Source: Candidatus Adlerbacteria bacterium GW2011_GWA1_54_10
GTDB taxonomy: Bacteria > Patescibacteriota > Minisyncoccia > Phycocordibacterales > SBAW01
DNA length: 37,079 nucleotides
Direction of reading: 5' to 3'
NCBI GenBank assembly: GCA_001004665.1
Contig: LCRO01000005.1
Location: forward strand, 1 to 37,079
Positions within the stretch are counted from its first letter, which is position 1, and each line of letters starts with the position of its first letter. Positions 11,600 to 35,373 of the stretch are shown here, in pieces. The translations under genes were made by a program, and so were the position numbers. The notes under the pieces are model-generated. The model saw only the letters and a list, made by a program, of their open reading frames with translations. It was not told where the DNA came from and searched no databases.

Positions 11600-11921
11600 C
11601 TTTTTGTATTACCTTTCGCACGACGGCAAAATCGCCATACCGTTTGGGCAAGGCCGCCAGCAAAGCCTCTCTTTTTCCGGAAATAGGCGTGTTTTCGTAT
11701 AAAACATCCTCCCGCATCACATTCTTAAGCAAGCAAGGCGAAACCTTGCTATCAGACAGCAAGGTTTCGCCTTGCTTGGATCCTTGACCCGATACCGCGC
11801 TAATCTGCCCAACATAGTCAAGAATGCTCGATATATCCTTTTGAAGATTCTCTTCCTCTGCTTCAGTCAATTTGAGCCTTGCCAATTGCGCCAAGTTGCG
11901 TATCTCCTCCCTCGAAATCAT
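11589..11921 (-). CDS. gatC: Asp-tRNA(Asn)/Glu-tRNA(Gln) amidotransferase subunit C, with an internal extra segment
   Basis: ISREEIRNLAQLARLKLTEAEEENLQKDISSILDYVGQI and NVMREDV are typical of GatC. At 110 aa it is longer than usual, and the extra segment coincides with a perfect DNA palindrome. Confidence 0.85.
   Translation of the reverse strand: MISREEIRNLAQLARLKLTEAEEENLQKDISSILDYVGQISAVSGQGSKQGETLLSDSKVSPCLLKNVMREDVLYENTPISGKREALLAALPKRYGDFAVVRKVIQKDAE
11730..11778. repeat. Perfect 21-bp inverted repeat with a 7-nt loop, inside the gatC coding sequence
   Basis: CAAGCAAGGCGAAACCTTGCT (11730-11750), loop ATCAGAC, then AGCAAGGTTTCGCCTTGCTTG (11758-11778). The arms are exact reverse complements. 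Confidence 0.95.
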
Positions 11922-24954: not shown

Positions 24955-25701
24955 ATGCTTGGAGCTTTGGTTTCGGGCTTTGCAGACTTTTTGGTGCCAC
25001 CGCGGCGCACGGAGAAGCTCGTTCGCTCTCTAACCATTGACGCGCTCCGAGACCTTTATATCGGAACACCGTCCCGGGATATCGCTCTTCTGCCTTACCA
25101 TGACCCACGGGTCACGGCGCTAATTTGGGAGATCAAATATTACGGCAACAACCGCGCCGCCGCGCTTGCGGGAGAAATCCTTGGGGAAGAGCTCCTCGCC
25201 ATCGCGGGCGAGGAGCTGGGCAAGCCGCTTTTAGTGCCGGTACCGATGCACAGCGCGCGGCGGCGCGAGCGCGGGCATAATCAGACGGAACTGCTGTGCG
25301 AAACCGCAATGCGAAATTTAAATTCCTCCTTTGAGTACGCGCCGCACGCGCTTATGCGCGTGCGGGCGACGCCGCGACAGCAGGGACTCGAGAGGACGAA
25401 GCGGCTGAAAAATATAAAGGGGGCGATGGCCGTTGCTCGCCCTGAGCTTGTCGAGGGGCGCGTCTGCGTCGTCGTTGATGACGTAATGACAACGGGCGCG
25501 ACGCTCGATGAGGTGCGGCGGTCATATCGTCCACTTCGCGCTTTGACGGTATCGGCTCTCCGGAGTGCTTTTCCTCAAAGTGCGCTCCTATCGCGCCTTT
25601 ATCCATCATGTTTCGGAATTTTGAGACCGCCTCATCGCGGCTCTCGGCGTCGGTTGTCATCGTGTCCCCGCACGTGCATATCATTGAATACGTCTGTGTA
25701 A
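24955..25701 (+). CDS. comF: ComF-family phosphoribosyltransferase-fold protein (ComFC-like); the 3' end is doubtful
   Basis: VPVPMHSARRRERGHNQTE and the PRPP loop VCVVVDDVMTTGATL are present. After about 25518 the frame becomes S/R/L/P-rich and is antisense to a protein-like small ORF. No stop codon occurs until 25701. Confidence 0.7.
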   Translation: MLGALVSGFADFLVPPRRTEKLVRSLTIDALRDLYIGTPSRDIALLPYHDPRVTALIWEIKYYGNNRAAALAGEILGEELLAIAGEELGKPLLVPVPMHSARRRERGHNQTELLCETAMRNLNSSFEYAPHALMRVRATPRQQGLERTKRLKNIKGAMAVARPELVEGRVCVVVDDVMTTGATLDEVRRSYRPLRALTVSALRSAFPQSALLSRLYPSCFGILRPPHRGSRRRLSSCPRTCISLNTSV

Positions 25702-25711
25702 TGGTTTCCAT
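25352..25711 (-). CDS. Small hypothetical protein (about the first 63 aa look genuine); the 3' end is doubtful
   Basis: METITQTYSMICTCGDTMTTDAESRDEAVSKFRNMMDKGAIGAHFEEKHSGEPIPSKREVDDM has balanced composition. Downstream of about 25523 the frame is R/P/S/A-rich and antisense to the comF catalytic core. Confidence 0.4.
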   Translation of the reverse strand: METITQTYSMICTCGDTMTTDAESRDEAVSKFRNMMDKGAIGAHFEEKHSGEPIPSKREVDDMTAAPHRASRPLSLRHQRRRRRAPRQAQGEQRPSPPLYFSAASSSRVPAVAASPARA

Positions 25712-25854
25712 GTTTTTTTGGGTTAGTCGCGGCTAATATAGAGAAGTGTATGAGCCGTACGATGAAATTATGAGGAAGCTACTACTGACGTTCCGGCTTT
25801 CGCCCAGAAGGTCTATTAGGATTTCCCTTATCCACAGATAACGATAAATACATA

Positions 25855-25882
25855 TTGACAAACGATAAGCTCTAATTAAGAT
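25855..25882 (+). promoter_or_regulatory. Candidate sigma70-type promoter for the DUF2975/XRE operon
   Basis: TTGACA (25855-25860), a 16-nt spacer, then TAAGAT (25877-25882), about 29 nt upstream of the ATG at 25911. This is a sequence match only. Confidence 0.3.
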
Positions 25883-25910
25883 GGAAATATAAAAATTATA
25901 AGCATCACCC

Positions 25911-26390
25911 ATGAAAAGAGGCTCAACAACATTTCTTCAAATAGTTATTGTGCTCATCGGCATTGTGGCGTTGGCCATCATGATCCGGTTCCCCTTGACC
26001 GAGGGGAGAGCCGCGAACTTAGACCTGTTTAGTATTTACTCTGATCCGTTCATCTTGTATGGGTACTTAGCGTCTATCGCATTTTTTGTTGCCCTGTATC
26101 AGGCGTTTAAATTACTCGGATATATCGGGCAAAATAAAGTATTCTCACTAGACTCTGTAAAGGCTTTAAGGACTATAAAATATTGTGCAATCGTCCTCGG
26201 CATCTTAATTGTGATGGCAGGACTATACATAAGGATATTTCATGCTGGAGATGACGATCCGGCGGGTTTTCTTGCCGTGTGTATTGTGACTACTTTTGTT
26301 TCTATCGTCATCGCCACTGCCACGGCTGTATTCGAGAAGCTCTTACAAACTGCCGTAGAGATGAAGTCGGAAAATGATTTAACGGTTTAA
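25911..26390 (+). CDS. DUF2975-like four-TM membrane protein
   Basis: Four hydrophobic helices, about 159 aa, followed by a 67-aa YozG-type HTH gene. This gene pairing is characteristic of DUF2975 loci. The family was recalled from memory, not searched. Confidence 0.6.
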   Translation: MKRGSTTFLQIVIVLIGIVALAIMIRFPLTEGRAANLDLFSIYSDPFILYGYLASIAFFVALYQAFKLLGYIGQNKVFSLDSVKALRTIKYCAIVLGILIVMAGLYIRIFHAGDDDPAGFLAVCIVTTFVSIVIATATAVFEKLLQTAVEMKSENDLTV

Positions 26391-26399
26391 AAAAATAAT

Positions 26400-26603
26400 A
26401 TGGCAATAATAATTAACATAGACGTGATGCTGGCAAAAAGAAAAATGAGCGTCACCGAGCTTGCCGAGAAAGTCGGAATCACCATGGCCAATATTTCCGT
26501 GTTGAAAAACGGCAAGGCAAAAGCGATCCGGTTATCGACCTTGGAGACGATTTGTAAGGCGTTGGAGTGTCAGCCCGGTGATATTTTAGAATATAAAAAG
26601 TAA
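26400..26603 (+). CDS. XRE/Cro-C1 family small HTH transcriptional regulator (YozG-like)
   Basis: MAIIINIDVMLAKRKMSVTELAEKVGITMANISVLKNGKAKAIRLSTLETICKALECQPGDILEY is a near-textbook example of this 67-aa family. Confidence 0.85.
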   Translation: MAIIINIDVMLAKRKMSVTELAEKVGITMANISVLKNGKAKAIRLSTLETICKALECQPGDILEYKK

Positions 26604-26645
26604 GAACAGGTGTTTGTCGGGCTCAAAAAGCCTTGCAGTTGCTGC

Positions 26646-26669
26646 GGTTCAAAGTTGGAAATCTGGCGG
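26646..26669 (+). repeat. Direct repeat copy A (GGTTCAAAGTTGGAAATCTGGCGG)
   Basis: Identical 24-mer to 28779-28802. Confidence 0.95.
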
Positions 26670-26846
26670 GCACGATCTCCGGAACTTTGAACCGAGGAAG
26701 TGGCTCAAATTCGAGGATCTTGATAAAAGTATACAGGAACTAAGAGCTATCTACAAAGTTCACCCTGAATGGTTTGAAGTGCCGAAACCAAAATCGAATA
26801 AAGGACAAAATGTAGCGGATTATCCAATAGATTAAAATTTTAATAA

Positions 26847-27254
26847 CTAATTTGCTGGTTCAAATCCTATAACGGAACTTCTTTTTAATTTGTATTTTTC
26901 AAATAGTTTATTATTTAAAAAATTGCTAACTATATATGCATTATGTATTTCTTTCATCAAATCATCGCGTAATTTGTCAATCTCATTTTGAGAAAGGCCT
27001 TTTCTTTTAAAAATGTCGTGAGCAAGTTTATTTCTTATCTTTCTTATATTATTAAATACACAAAATTCCGAGGAATTTATTTTTTGTGAGCAAAGCAGAA
27101 ATTTGTTTGCTGAATCGAATTTATCCATTCCGCTCTCATTTGCTAAAATACCCTCAATAATTGAAGAGTGGACAAAAACATTGCGATAACTACTTTTTAA
27201 GTATTTACCAAATTGTTGTTTAACCCAATCTTGGTGGCTTAAATTTTTAGCCAT
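26847..27254 (-). CDS. Small HEPN-motif protein (R-x4-H: IRNKLAHD)
   Basis: 135 aa, all-helical in appearance and AT-rich in codon usage. NNIRKIRNKLAHDIF carries the R-x4-H motif of HEPN RNase domains. No adjacent MNT or antitoxin-like ORF is visible. Confidence 0.5.
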   Translation of the reverse strand: MAKNLSHQDWVKQQFGKYLKSSYRNVFVHSSIIEGILANESGMDKFDSANKFLLCSQKINSSEFCVFNNIRKIRNKLAHDIFKRKGLSQNEIDKLRDDLMKEIHNAYIVSNFLNNKLFEKYKLKRSSVIGFEPAN

Positions 27255-27263
27255 ATTTTATTA

Positions 27264-27784
27264 TTATTCCGCTATCTCAAAAATCTTTTTCACAAATGCC
27301 GTGCGTGCGTAAAATGCACGGCTAATTGAGCCGTGCCCGGGACCTTTTGTGCGAGCTTGTATCCATTTCCCGTCTTTTCCTGTTAAAGCTTCGAACCCTT
27401 GCTTAACAAGTTTGTTGCGAATGAAATCATAATCAACTTTGATTTCTTTTATCAATTCATCGTCCTCTGCAAAATCCAAACTTGTAACTTTGAGTAATTT
27501 TGCTTCCTCGGAATTTGTCCCGTTCCACTCAACCGCGCAAAAGATAATGGTTTTGAGCTTTGCCCAACAATGGCTTTCAAAAAATGAATTGGTTAGCGTA
27601 GCCATAGCTGAAATTCAGGATAAGTTTCCTTGTCGTAAAATTGTAGATGTTTGTCGTCTTTCCAAACAAGCTCAGTCAAATTTTCGTAATCATCGCTGTA
27701 TCCTCGGCACACAACCAAAAGACGATTGAAAGGATTTAATCGCAGAATAAGTTTTGCAAAAAATGGTAAGAGTTGTATTTTCAT
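27264..27784 (-). pseudogene. MutH/Sau3AI-family-like GATC endonuclease homologue, split into two overlapping ORFs (63 aa and 113 aa) by a frameshift near 27593-27605
   Basis: The 113-aa ORF aligns by eye with the E. coli MutH C-terminal half: FFESHCWAKLK vs WETSHVRHKLK, IFCAVEW vs LWIPVEG, DYDFIRNKLVKQGFEALTGKDGKWIQARTKG vs [31 protein letters not shown], and SRAFYARTAFVKKIF vs PRGFYLKKNFTSALL. The upstream 63-aa ORF has DDYENLTELVWK in the position of the MutH D-x6-E-x-K region. The two frames overlap by 13 nt. Confidence 0.4.
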
Positions 27785-27786
27785 AA

Positions 27787-28557
27787 TTATTTGAGTCGAT
27801 AATTCCCTCGGCTGGTAAATTCGAGATAACCTTTGTCCCGCAATACTTGGAGTTGCTGTCGAATCTTATCTTTGATGTGGCGGTTATCAGGATGTTTTTT
27901 GCTCAAATCATTTCCAAATGTATACATCTCATCAAGCGAAAATTCTTTGTGACCTATTTTCTCAACGCACAACATGGTATCTAATAGCCAACCTTTTGCA
28001 CTGATTTCTTTTTCATCACGCAGGAAAAGAGTTTTTTCCCAGTCCGCGAGAACTTTTTCCTTTGCTTCAGTCTGTCCGTCTCTAACAAAGAATATCTTCC
28101 CCGTTTGTGGAATATGATTGAGTAGTATATTGCAACCAATCCAGCCCGCCCGTCTGGCAGTTGGCGAGAGCGGTTTTCGTTTTTCAATTATTTCTGGAAC
28201 AAAAAAATGTTTTGGAATGACAAGAAAATTCAGGACTTCAAAACTTTTCAAGTCGTAATTCAGCAGGAAAAAATTGGGATTGTTGCTACTTTGTAATCGT
28301 TCAATCATTGTGCGATATGCACCGTCCACAATTTTTACGCCAACGCTATTCTGCTTACTTTTTAATTCATACTCCTCTTTACAGTTCGAGCAATAAAAAT
28401 CTGCGACTGGCTGATTATTTGGATACTTATCAATATCCAAGTGTCCGCAGTTCGGACAAAAAATTGCACCATCAACCCACGCCTCACTTAAAATGCGAAT
28501 CTTCTGTGATTGGCTTGTGTAATTATCCGCAAGTTGTGTATCAAATGATAACTTCAT
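27787..28557 (-). CDS. DpnI-family methyl-directed (G-m6A-TC) type IIM restriction endonuclease
   Basis: It is colinear over its full length (256 aa) with S. pneumoniae DpnI as I recall it: SQSQKIRILSEAWV, CPNCG, PVADFYCSNCKEEYELKSK, DGAYRTMIERLQSSNNPNFF, RKPLSPTARRAGWIGCNI, and the C-terminal winged helix HIKDKIRQQLQVLRDKGYLEF. Confidence 0.9.
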   Translation of the reverse strand: MKLSFDTQLADNYTSQSQKIRILSEAWVDGAIFCPNCGHLDIDKYPNNQPVADFYCSNCKEEYELKSKQNSVGVKIVDGAYRTMIERLQSSNNPNFFLLNYDLKSFEVLNFLVIPKHFFVPEIIEKRKPLSPTARRAGWIGCNILLNHIPQTGKIFFVRDGQTEAKEKVLADWEKTLFLRDEKEISAKGWLLDTMLCVEKIGHKEFSLDEMYTFGNDLSKKHPDNRHIKDKIRQQLQVLRDKGYLEFTSRGNYRLK

Positions 28558-28759
28558 AATTTAATCCGTTGCTTTTGTCCCACTCGCCTTTATTAACACT
28601 AACGCGTCGTCCGGCATGAACCGTAAAGCCGCCATTCGAAAGAAGATAAGGCGGATCAGCAAAAACCATATCAACCGAATTTTCTGGAAGTTTAGCTAAC
28701 AACTCCAAGCAATCTGCTTGGTAGAGTTTGAATTTTGGTTTTTCGTAATATGGTTGCAT
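28541..28759 (-). pseudogene. 5' stub (about 63 codons) of a DpnA/M2.DpnII-like N6-adenine DNA methyltransferase
   Basis: KPKFKLYQADCLELLAKLPENSVDMVFADPPYLLSNGGFTVHAGRRVSVNKGEWDKS matches the DpnA N-terminus including DPPY motif IV. Similarity ends where the DpnI start codon overlaps it. The SAM-binding motif I region is absent. Confidence 0.75.
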
Positions 28760-28778
28760 AACCGCCTTATTTTACCTT

Positions 28779-28802
28779 GGTTCAAAGTTGGAAATCTGGC
28801 GG
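28779..28802 (+). repeat. Direct repeat copy B (GGTTCAAAGTTGGAAATCTGGCGG), overlapping the last 6 nt of tRNA-Ser
   Basis: Identical 24-mer to 26646-26669. Positions 28797-28802 are the CCGCCA 3' end of the tRNA on the minus strand. Confidence 0.95.
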
Positions 28803-28887
28803 AGGAGGTGGGACTTGAACCCACAAGGGAGTTTTTGGCCCCCTACGGATTAGCAATCCGCTGGCTTACCATTCGCCGCACTCCTCC
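28797..28887 (-). tRNA. tRNA-Ser (anticodon GCT), long variable arm, CCA encoded
   Basis: The reverse complement runs GGAGGAG-TG-...-GCGGA-TTGCTAA-TCCGT, then a long variable arm (GGGGGCCAAAAACTCCCT), then GTGGG-TTCAAGT-CCCAC-CTCCTCC-G-CCA. Confidence 0.9.
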
Positions 28888-33989: not shown

Positions 33990-34920
33990 AATTCACGCTA
34001 TAGCTGAAATTATACGCGGTTCCTTTCTGGTGAGTATCTACAACGCTGCTCGAACCTATTTTAGCACCAACTCCTGATCTCGCGCGCTCCGCGCGCGCTG
34101 TGGCTTTGACCTTCGCATCACGATTCGATTCTGTGGTACTTCTCTCGGGCGCGCGTGCTCGCGCGCCCTCGCAGCCCCCGCCCCGCCGCACACTCCCTCC
34201 ATCGTTTTTAATCTCGCGGGGGAATCCATTTGAGCGGATGGGCGGCGGGGCGGCGGCCAAACGGCTCACTTCTTCCCATTTGAGCCGTTGGCTCGGAAGG
34301 AGTGAGCCGTTGAAATCCAAGAATCCAAAATGCAAATCCACTGCGGATGCCACGGGTTGCGAACAGTGCCTTCGTATAGATGTTGAATTACTACCCGCCA
34401 TCCGGCGGGCAGGGTATCTCGCTAGGGCTCGTCCGGCAGTATCGGTGCGCCTACGGCGCGCTCATTGGGTGGGGTGGGCGCACCCACCCCCCGCTACATC
34501 ACGCTAGTGCTCCAAAAACCCTCGTTTATACTTGAGTTGCTCGCGGTGCGTCCGTTCGCTTCGTCTTTTATCGGTTTCAGGTTTGCTATCTTGCAGCAGG
34601 TCTCATTTATCCGCCGCTCCGTTCGTGTTCGTGCCTCGGCTTTTGGAGCCTCCTAGCGCACTGCAGCTCCCCCCACCCGCGGTCAGTATTTCACTTCCGA
34701 TTTCTCGTACATAGTTGGTTATCCGCTTGCGCGGGCCGGCCTCGGTCCAGCATTCCCTAGCGAGATACCTGCCCGCCAGATGGCATCCATTCACGCATGC
34801 GCCTGTCTGGGTCAGGCGCATGGGTCAGCCGCGCTTCTCGCGGCTGCGCGTCGTTTGTATATCGCATTTCACATCCGATTTTCTGCCTCCTTGCATACAA
34901 CAACCAAATTCAAAAATATC
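33990..34920. ncRNA. Candidate large structured noncoding RNA (or decayed palindromic element); family unknown, strand undetermined
   Basis: This 931 nt has no ORF of protein-like composition. It contains at least 8 perfect local hairpins and three nested long-range complementarities (12, 15 and 23 bp), detailed in the findings. I recognise no Rfam-type motif. Confidence 0.35.
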
Positions 34921-35373
34921 TCAAGGCTTTGTGTAAGTTACCGCTTTTCCGGTTTTCCCGACTTGTTTTATTTTTCCTTGCTTCTCCAATTCAGACAGAT
35001 ACCGAGTTGCTGTTGCGTCGGAGACGTGGAGGAGTTTCTCCACTTCGTCGTTCGTGATTTTTCCTTTCGCGTTCAGCGCTTCCAGAATCTTTTCGAGTTT
35101 CCTTTGCTTTCGGGATTGAATCGCGGCGCGAGCTTTGTTGAGGAGATCGCGGGCGAAGTTCGTACTTGGCGGTGGCGCGTTGCTTGGTGACGTTGGCGCG
35201 GGAGTTTGAGGCGTTGGTTCAGGAGGCAACGGCTCATTGGCTGGTATTTGAGCCGTTTGGGTTTCGGGCGCTTGCTGCGGCTCTGGTGGCGCGGAAGATT
35301 CAGACGCAGACTCGCTCACCGGCTCCGCCGGTTCGCTCGATGGTGCAGATTGAGATGGATTTTCGTCTGACAT
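34921..35373 (-). CDS. Winged-helix DNA-binding protein with a Pro/Glu/Ser/Gln-rich disordered N-terminal half
   Basis: The C-terminus KILEALNAKGKITNDEVEKLLHVSDATATRYLSELEKQGKIKQVGKTGKAVTYTK is a DeoR/Fic-associated type wHTH. The ATG at 35373 is preferred. The upstream part of the 335-aa ORF overlaps a better membrane-protein ORF in another frame. Confidence 0.65.
   Translation of the reverse strand: MSDENPSQSAPSSEPAEPVSESASESSAPPEPQQAPETQTAQIPANEPLPPEPTPQTPAPTSPSNAPPPSTNFARDLLNKARAAIQSRKQRKLEKILEALNAKGKITNDEVEKLLHVSDATATRYLSELEKQGKIKQVGKTGKAVTYTKP

Follow-up and report, generated by a model that had tools for sequence, protein, structure and literature searches.

We analyzed a 37,079-nucleotide (nt) stretch of DNA from Candidatus Adlerbacteria bacterium GW2011_GWA1_54_10 (contig LCRO01000005.1, positions 1 to 37,079, hereafter the window), in which a gene-free region of 935 nt separates recG from a convergent gene for a winged helix-turn-helix (wHTH) protein. 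The minus strand of this region, from 34905 to ~34026, probably (at roughly two chances in three) carries a member of a family of structured RNAs in Paceibacteria that has not been catalogued. Members of this putative family are ~0.6–0.9 kb long and lie directly downstream of the wHTH gene on its strand; the RNA of the window would measure ~0.75–0.9 kb and stands at the end of a cassette that flips and moves. A sequence-only reading of this DNA had proposed a large structured RNA of no known class, and this proposal gains support from negative Rfam searches, from conservation, from a covarying closing helix, and from G-U wobbles. In its predicted architecture, a closing helix, P1 (15–31 bp), encloses a multi-hairpin domain of ~330 nt and is followed by a hairpin with a GGAU loop and then by a 3′ domain ending in a GC-rich hairpin (Table 1).

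The search of the window against Rfam 15 brought only tRNAs to the gathering score. Within the gene-free stretch no credible match appeared even at E ≤ 10, where just sub-threshold microRNA and small-RNA noise was returned; the unmatched families include OLE, ROOL, GOLLD, HEARO, raiA, RNase P, tmRNA, signal recognition particle RNA, 6S, rRNA, and the group I and II introns. ARAGORN found no tmRNA, ten loci of the wider family described below likewise gave no match in Rfam 15, and full-text literature searches turned up no description of such an RNA. A likeness of the AACGGCUCA hairpin to domain V of group II introns was dropped on inspection by eye, as was a candidate attachment (att) site made of a tRNA fragment in the outer module.

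Open reading frames (ORFs) of up to 145 amino acids (aa) overlap the stretch, but several results argue against coding. These ORFs are rich in Arg, Ser, Gly, and Ala, their reading frames are not kept among homologues, which are separated by many frame-breaking indels of 1–2 nt, and they have no relatives in 80 related loci by six-frame tblastn. That search gave no similarity to related loci past the end of recG. In 35 related genomes of the Candidate Phyla Radiation (CPR), no homologue downstream of recG was recovered by blastn, nhmmer, or six-frame tblastn; the stretch is unconserved at that place as DNA and as translation, which rules out both a syntenic spacer and a decayed gene. RecG itself places the window in the CPR (Patescibacteria, ultra-small bacteria), with 'Adlerbacteria'/Paceibacterota metagenome-assembled genomes as the nearest at 72% identity.

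The predicted folding energy of the 935-nt stretch is −380.6 kcal/mol for the plus strand and −416.7 kcal/mol for the minus strand, compared to means of −320 and −334 for twenty dinucleotide-preserving shuffles (z = −9.9 and −10.5, respectively), none of which folds equally well. All the local stems of the earlier description were recovered at their positions, both by direct reading and by an independent inverted-repeat search. The two nested long-range pairings are present as well, the outer one as 34397–427/34755–784 (31 nt, one bulge) and the inner one as 34502–20/34638–58. Calling the region GC-rich is accurate to the extent that its GC content is slightly higher than that of its surroundings (57–60% vs ~55%), which makes the label a weak descriptor.

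To place the stretch among its relatives, we gathered close homologues, and the element was found in ~75 Kaiserbacteria/Paceibacteria loci at 80–92% identity. Exact 20–21-mers from the stretch occur in 12 GTDB genomes (7 + 5; Kaiserbacteria, Paceibacterota) and in 64 metagenome contigs, and the blastn identity of 80–92% spans 34026–35270, which covers the non-coding stretch and the C-terminal domain of the wHTH gene. Conservation sets in at ~34905 on the minus strand, 15 nt past the wHTH stop. The non-coding core has a median identity to the window of 89%, where the first, second, and third codon positions of the wHTH gene have 87%, 91%, and 62%, respectively; the difference between the core and the third codon positions indicates purifying selection on the core. 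The ~560 nt that lie outside the inverted repeat described below are conserved like first and second codon positions. The element is non-coding and under purifying selection.

The wHTH gene adjoins the element in 55 of 73 loci, and no other neighbor is constant. Three loci (L107, L120, and L141) lack exactly 34401–34768, with the junction at a repeated GGCGGG, and one (L084) lacks 34480–34599, so that the interior domain of P1 is optional. Contigs and assemblies frequently break at the element, and at least five metagenome-assembled genomes hold two copies of it. A scan of IMG/VR with an invariant 20-mer gave no match, so no viral contig there carries the element. Identity with a miniature inverted-repeat transposable element (MITE) or an insertion sequence (IS) was rejected (the sequence-only reading had listed a match to a known repeat or IS family among the findings that would speak against an RNA): inverted repeats exist, but the copies are not dispersed at unrelated sites and no transposase gene is present. 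When two internal 20–21-mers were run against 185,579 genomes, all matches except a single chance match fell in the same context.

The covariation comes from a second, more distant set. A search of GTDB genomes with the wHTH domain yielded 80 Paceibacteria loci (63–88% identity), in many of which the contig ends a few hundred bases past the wHTH gene. In 57–63 of the 80, the sequence that immediately follows the wHTH stop belongs, on the wHTH strand, to one family of non-coding elements, which ranges from Kaiser-, Nomura-, Yonath-, Zambryskii-, and Lloydbacteria to Minisyncoccia. An iterated nhmmer model of this family has 548 positions, of which 328–548, that is, only the 3′ 40% of the model, match the window (E = 2.9e-33; coordinates in Table 1). 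A profile built from the close homologues alone fails to reach the wider family. The single-linkage links that ran through one locus (L160) proved to reflect the last part of the wHTH gene and not the RNA.

In an alignment of the body of 36 full-length members (A5), RNAalifold predicts 41 pairs, 17 of them compensated. The number of compensated cells was 73, a value that none of 500 shuffles reached (13.6 ± 3.2); sliding the partners gave 3–6 pairs. The best-supported helix is a 17-bp long-range stem of ..AUUUCCGCUAGGG with CCCUAGCGGAAAU.., which encloses 300–400 nt. The 5′ domain of the wider family begins 5–35 nt after the stop (AGGGAG...GUGCACGCACGGGUGGG, a variable hairpin, then CUGGGGCAAGCAC), and in its alignment (A6) 11 of 17 pairs are compensated, with 60 cells against 15.4 ± 3.6 in shuffles (0 of 500). 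Tallies of the listed pair types gave ~36 G-U/U-G cells and zero A-C in A6, and ~22 G-U vs 7 A-C in A5. This bias points to the wHTH-sense strand, which is the minus strand of the window, as the folded one. Among the close homologues, an all-against-all scan for column covariation was too noisy to use.

The long-range helix that the sequence-only reading had drawn between 34404–27 and 34755–77 is the homologue of the helix with compensatory changes in these 36 sequences. The long stem of the wider family corresponds to GGUAUCUCGCUAGGG with CCCUAGCGAGAUACC in the window, and the 5′ arm of P1 to the ..AUUUCCGCUAGGG arm, which has seven compensated pairs. Aligning ..CGCUAGGG / CCCUAGCG.. at 34755–84/34397–427 with A5 columns 72–92/508–527, and the hairpin 34394–409 with columns 531–540, we found that, beyond the CGCUAGGG/CCCUAGCG common to both subfamilies, five of seven pairs differ between them, all with compensation. 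The inner 15 bp of P1 are invariant in 26 sequences. In the same place as the GGAU hairpin of the window, the wider family has GGC-GGAU-GCC, compensated in two sequences; the stem differs between the subfamilies and the loop is kept.

The window thus has profile homology with the family, the location after the wHTH stop on the same strand, and the closing helix with the GGAU hairpin. The 5′-domain feature of the family (GUGC..GGGUGGG, a variable hairpin, and GGGGCAAGCAC), for which a covariance model (R1) finds 19 places in related loci, is missing from it. The window-type RNA starts instead with an invariant GCAAGGAGG, and some members of the window subfamily carry the 5′ domain fused just upstream of GCAAGGAGG. 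Common to both subfamilies are the GGAU-loop hairpin after the 3′ arm, the AACGGCUCA...UGAGCCGUU hairpins, and the long GC-rich hairpin at the terminus. This distribution of parts shows a modular family, of which the window represents a variant subfamily. RNAalifold returned no consensus structure for the shared 3′ half on the nhmmer alignment, because that alignment is not structure-aware.

Table 1 Features of the candidate RNA and of its surroundings in the window.
Feature	Position	Strand	Remark
5′ segment of window-type RNA	34785..34905	-	two hairpins and an invariant purine-rich AAGGAGG (34886-34892)
5′-segment hairpins	34826-33/34839-46 and 34793-805/34813-25	-	both conserved
P1 closing helix, 5′ arm GCCAUCUGGCGGGCAGGUAUCUCGCUAGGG	34755..34784	-	pairs with 34397-34427
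P1 closing helix, 3′ arm CCCUAGCGAGAUACCCUGCCCGCCGGAUGGC	34397..34427	-	wider-family nhmmer match starts here
Interior domain within P1	34428..34754 (~327 nt)	-	nested helix 34502-20/34638-58, hairpin 34471-78/34483-90
GGAU-loop hairpin CCCGCC-GGAU-GGCGGG	34394..34409	-	overlaps outer end of P1 3′ arm
3′ half common to wider family	34179..34429	-	iterative nhmmer
Nested AACGGCUCA...UGAGCCGUU hairpins, small palindromic unit	34260..34311	-	comes and goes
Terminal GC-rich long hairpin (A2)	34174..34257	-	3′-terminal module and cassette inverted repeat/breakpoint; kept in wider family
Outer hairpin module (A1)	34026..34173	-	GCGCGC hairpins 34081-97 and 34147-68; outer end of conserved, mobile unit
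Local hairpin stem	34081-87/34091-97		read in sequence
Local hairpin stem	34147-55/34160-68		read in sequence
Pairing	34178-89/34242-53		part of 26-nt, 81% arm pair 34174-99/34232-57
Pairing	34260-76/34295-311		read in sequence
Local hairpin stem	34394-99/34404-09		read in sequence
Local hairpin stem	34471-78/34483-90		read in sequence
Local hairpin stem	34797-805/34813-21		read in sequence
Local hairpin stem	34826-33/34839-46		read in sequence
wHTH gene, 139 aa	34921..35340	-	directly upstream of RNA, same strand
Invertible segment	34253..37079		RNA core, wHTH, 143-aa membrane protein, HTH_19 protein, GNAT

Some parts of the predicted RNA vary in ways of their own. The loop of the hairpin 34826–46 reads AGAAG or its reverse complement CTTCT, depending on the locus. 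The AAGGAGG is followed by a short ORF, which was set aside for lack of conservation. The AACGGCUCA...UGAGCCGUU unit stands at varying places in the wider family or is absent, and a copy of the palindromic unit (AACGGCTCA-N12-TGAGCCGTT) lies at 35228–35257, where the wHTH gene encodes its low-complexity N-terminus; perhaps the unit is a very small mobile hairpin that disordered stretches of protein can accommodate. In its loop, the terminal hairpin carries ATCTCGCGGGGG (34211–34222), a sequence that resembles the P1 arm motif ATCTCGCTAGGG (34416–34427 and 34755–34766), and several but not all members of the wider family have a similar likeness (CCCCCGCGAAAT vs CCCTAGCGGAAAT), which could reflect an alternative pairing or a repeated protein site.

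The left third of the element (34026–34257, A2 and A1) is, from the arrangement of its copies, also a DNA-level inverted repeat of an invertible or mobile cassette. It recurs inverted 2.1–9.4 kb beyond the wHTH gene in 35 of the 41 loci that extend far enough, and inverted copies of A1 are found in several loci. In L086 (3624–3653, oriented coordinates) and L094 (9537–9603), a third copy of the outer module lies in direct orientation past a serine recombinase gene, so that the recombinase is bracketed by modules in these two loci. Among the contigs encoding the GNAT protein of the window, L240 follows the order of the window throughout, at 100% identity, and L239 and L241 have the same recG flank (99.9–100% identity) with 34253 to beyond 37079 reversed. 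Both orientations of the segment thus occur in the population from which the window comes. The breakpoint of the inversion falls at 34238–34252, inside the A2 hairpin, and the right end of the invertible segment ~30 nt past the window. L238 (NCBI MEWY01000002.1) carries the cassette at 99.6% identity next to a different left flank, the homology beginning at 34026. The two orientations and the second context indicate that the RNA core, the wHTH gene, the membrane protein, HTH_19, and GNAT form an invertible, recently mobile cassette. Since the terminal module of the RNA doubles as the inverted repeat, the 3′ end of the RNA would be the same in either orientation. The reversed form is present in two independent assemblies and the form of the window in the window and L240.

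There is variety in the cargo of these cassettes, which includes type III restriction-modification genes (ResIII and N6_N4_Mtase), a reverse transcriptase, and a MazF-like protein; one contig has argG-argH as its cargo, between inverted ends of 141 nt that are identical. In three or four loci, the gene for a 339-aa reverse transcriptase (RVT_1), probably cargo, is found a short way upstream of the wHTH-RNA pair (directly upstream in L118/L159; also L163 and L166). A large serine recombinase (Resolvase, Recombinase, and Zn_ribbon_recom domains) is encoded just past the far module copy in at least 15 close loci. Most wider-family loci have none within 6 kb (only 6 of the 80 do), and none is encoded in the window, which stops short of the far repeat. 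A tRNA-Thr(CGT) gene lies just beyond the 3′ end of the RNA on the same strand in seven loci; the window has two tRNA-Thr genes (CGT and GGT) back to back at 143–292, where the site is empty of the element. The covariance model of the 5′ domain also matches ~180–300 nt beyond the far inverted module and is directed at it (L113, L096, L121, L133, L135, L097, L151, L109, L238, and others), and it thus seems that pieces of a second RNA gene lie on the flanks of the cassettes. Beside the cassette in L238, 90-nt inverted repeats with 100% identity (7660–7749/9632–9721) bracket ~1.9 kb in which small ORFs and an HTH_31 gene lie, and may delimit another invertible segment.

The wHTH protein has a disordered N-terminus rich in Pro, Ser, and Glu and a C-terminal winged helix that is HTH_24/DeoR-like (Pfam HTH_24, 6.5e-08; HTH_DeoR, 5e-07), and the identity per codon position given above is a coding signature. 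Public gene calls miss this gene (L238–L240, the equivalent of 34780–35370) and place antisense ORFs of 88 and 136 aa there instead, which is why an exact-protein look-up returned no record of it. Searches against NCBIfam, PADLOC, and PDB sequences gave generic sub-threshold wHTH matches (Csa3, CasR, and SoFic C-terminal domains) and no solved relative. Five copies of the element have no wHTH gene upstream (L083, L086, L100, L132, and L134), and some others are 230–545 nt distant from it.

Conservation that begins 5–35 nt after the stop suggests that the RNA would be read through from the wHTH gene or initiated at its stop codon. The long and near-perfect P1 duplex could serve as an RNase III-type processing site, and cleavage there would release the enclosed domain. 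The RNA might be a stable scaffold that acts with the neighboring wHTH protein, and the pair would be the core that stays constant in a family of cassettes that invert or move. It is a long shot that the RNA is itself active in cassette recombination, alone or with the wHTH protein or the large serine recombinase, by specifying or scaffolding the inversion, capture, or movement of cargo between the terminal modules. If it were, this would be an RNA-dependent cassette system undescribed for serine recombinases, to which IS110 bridge RNAs and integron attC folding would be conceptually nearest.

Several observations weigh against a structured RNA. The close homologues provide two compensated pairs on the minus strand and one on the plus strand, their wobbles (77 G-T vs 74 A-C) do not pick a strand, and their changes in outer P1 are often mismatches; covariation in this set is uninformative because the helices almost never vary. 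A lack of compensatory substitutions, named by the sequence-only reading as evidence against its proposal, was what the close set gave; the more distant family has them. The R1 model does not match in the window, where the covarying 5′ domain is thus missing, the P1 interior is unalignable between the subfamilies, and the homology of the 5′ two-thirds to the wider family would depend on architecture and the P1 arms. On the minus strand, no sigma-70 promoter or intrinsic terminator stands out and no U-tract is present. Both the processing at P1 and the partnership with the wHTH protein are inferred. Three features (the flipped hairpin loop, the inverted repeats, and the inversion) belong to the level of DNA, and misassembly at the 230-nt inverted repeat could in principle have produced the inversion isomers. 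Finally, the G-T wobbles and the covariation would also fit a folded single strand of DNA.

That last point leads to the main rival, which we consider unlikely and which would explain the inverted repeats and the inversion: a DNA-level (or single-stranded DNA) element without an RNA product, made of recombination or inversion sites or of a single-strand origin or transfer site. Such an element would work as a cruciform or as folded single-stranded DNA, as in integron attC, and would be used by the serine recombinase or by host recombination. It would account for a terminal module that brackets cargo as an inverted repeat, for the two orientations with a breakpoint within a hairpin and the same cassette in another context, for the large serine recombinase past the repeat in at least 15 loci, for the loop flipped between loci, for the frequent contig breaks, and for the retention of both helix arms by sequence in close homologues. 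Large serine recombinases, however, use duplex sites of ~40–50 bp, far below the 600 nt of the element, and ~560 conserved nt lie outside the repeat. In 57–63 loci, most of them without a recombinase within 6 kb, the element has a fixed orientation and starts at the wHTH stop, and helices of 8–17 bp with many compensated pairs and a gene-sense G-U bias are the usual signature of a transcript.

The remaining explanations are progressively less likely. A long structured 3′ untranslated region (UTR) with a terminator or insulator, acting only in cis on the stability of the wHTH mRNA or blocking read-through between the variable cassette and downstream housekeeping genes or tRNA, is somewhat more doubtful than a DNA-level element. 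Conservation starting 5–35 nt past the stop, the long GC-rich hairpins at the end of the region, the tRNA-Thr or prfB-ftsEX genes that follow on the same strand in several loci, and the use of the same hairpin module to close the other side of the cargo would all suit it, but a covarying multi-domain fold of 600–900 nt far exceeds the needs of termination, there is no U-tract, and the copies without an upstream wHTH gene or at a distance from it would be left unexplained. We give very little credit to a functionless pile-up of selfish palindromic repeats, repetitive extragenic palindrome (REP)-like or MITE-like, in a permissive gap. The AACGGCTCA...TGAGCCGTT units do stand at varying positions, one of them within the coding sequence of wHTH, the inverted repeat of 31 nt is MITE-like together with a short direct repeat at its flank, and that segment is missing from three loci. 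Against this, the scans of 185,579 genomes with two 20–21-mers from the segment bounded by the inverted repeat place it in this context only, order and spacing are kept, the core is under purifying selection, and the arms of the supposed MITE are those of P1, the helix that covaries in the wider family. That the stretch is a protein-coding gene, decayed or mis-called, is scarcely credible: ORFs of 135–145 aa overlap the stretch, but their composition, the small indels, and the six-frame search described above argue otherwise, as does a conservation above that of synonymous sites in the neighboring gene.

A structured RNA would stand as a new class among the large ornate non-coding RNAs of bacteria, one unusually linked to cassette inversion. 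By analogy, its nearest counterparts in size and style would be OLE, for the partner proteins, and ROOL and GOLLD, for the association with mobile elements and tRNA genes. OLE RNA (RF01071) is ~600 nt long, has the partner proteins OapA, OapB, and OapC, and is described in a ribonucleoprotein working model (PMC9723947, PMC10898510). The element resembles it as a conserved multi-helix bacterial RNA with an adjoining gene for a candidate partner protein, here a wHTH protein, but has no sequence or structure match to it; OLE is single-copy, membrane-linked, and found in Firmicutes, whereas the element is multi-copy, found in the CPR, and located on a mobile or invertible cassette. ROOL (RF03087) and GOLLD (RF01998) are ornate RNAs of 0.5–0.8 kb linked to mobile DNA or prophages and to tRNA genes (PMC5737381, PMC12286853). 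The element shares their size class, ornate fold, and association with mobile DNA and tRNA genes. Neither model matches it, however, no viral contig carries it, and it has both a fixed protein neighbor and an inverted terminal module around cargo, where ROOL and GOLLD have neither.

The stems flanking 16S and 23S rRNA that RNase III cleaves are long near-perfect duplexes of distant arms that enclose a structured RNA. The arms of P1 likewise lie several hundred nt apart around a structured domain, but the locus is not an rRNA operon and cleavage here is a proposal. With the invertible segments and shufflons that serine recombinases drive (Hin/hix, Gin/gix), the cassette has in common its inverted repeats, the occurrence of both orientations, and a serine recombinase beside one repeat in many relatives. 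Unlike those of Hin/hix and Gin/gix, the repeats are 80–230 nt long, hairpin-rich, and also the 3′ end of a putative RNA gene; the recombinase is large (phage-integrase-like) and absent from most wider-family loci, and homologous recombination would suffice. A structured RNA at the end of a mobile unit beside a protein of its own recalls the IS110 bridge RNA, the omega RNA of IscB/TnpB, and HEARO, yet none of the IS110, IscB, and TnpB genes is present, HEARO (RF02033) is unmatched, and the RNA here would be 3–5 times larger than RNAs of the IS110/IscB/TnpB type, with no evidence of guide segments.

Other features were observed elsewhere in the window. Identical 24-nt direct repeats (GGTTCAAAGTTGGAAATCTGGCGG) at 26646–26669 and 28779–28802 bracket a stretch of low GC content (27–44% vs ~55%; region 25600–28800), and the second repeat abuts the 3′ end of tRNA-Ser(GCT) (28797–28887, minus strand). 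This stretch encodes a restriction enzyme of the DpnI family (27787–28557, minus strand) and small HTH genes, and looks like a small element integrated at tRNA-Ser(GCT). At 25521/25522 of the window, L239 has 78 extra bases (1134–1211), the contig being otherwise 100% identical. A palindrome with perfect 24-nt arms (11730–11778; 96% complementary, 1-nt loop) in a short intergenic gap is terminator-like.

To our knowledge, only a handful of bacterial RNAs longer than 500 nt have elaborate conserved folds (OLE, GOLLD, ROOL, and raiA), none of them from the CPR, and each of these grew into a research problem of its own. On the practical side, public annotations miss both the RNA and the wHTH gene, and assemblies break at the element. 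The family described here would be tractable, being widespread in Paceibacteria, multi-copy, provided with a dedicated protein neighbor, and placed at the border of variable cassettes of defense genes. It would give structural studies a large RNA not seen before, and would open a way to learn how genome islands are organized in these reduced genomes.

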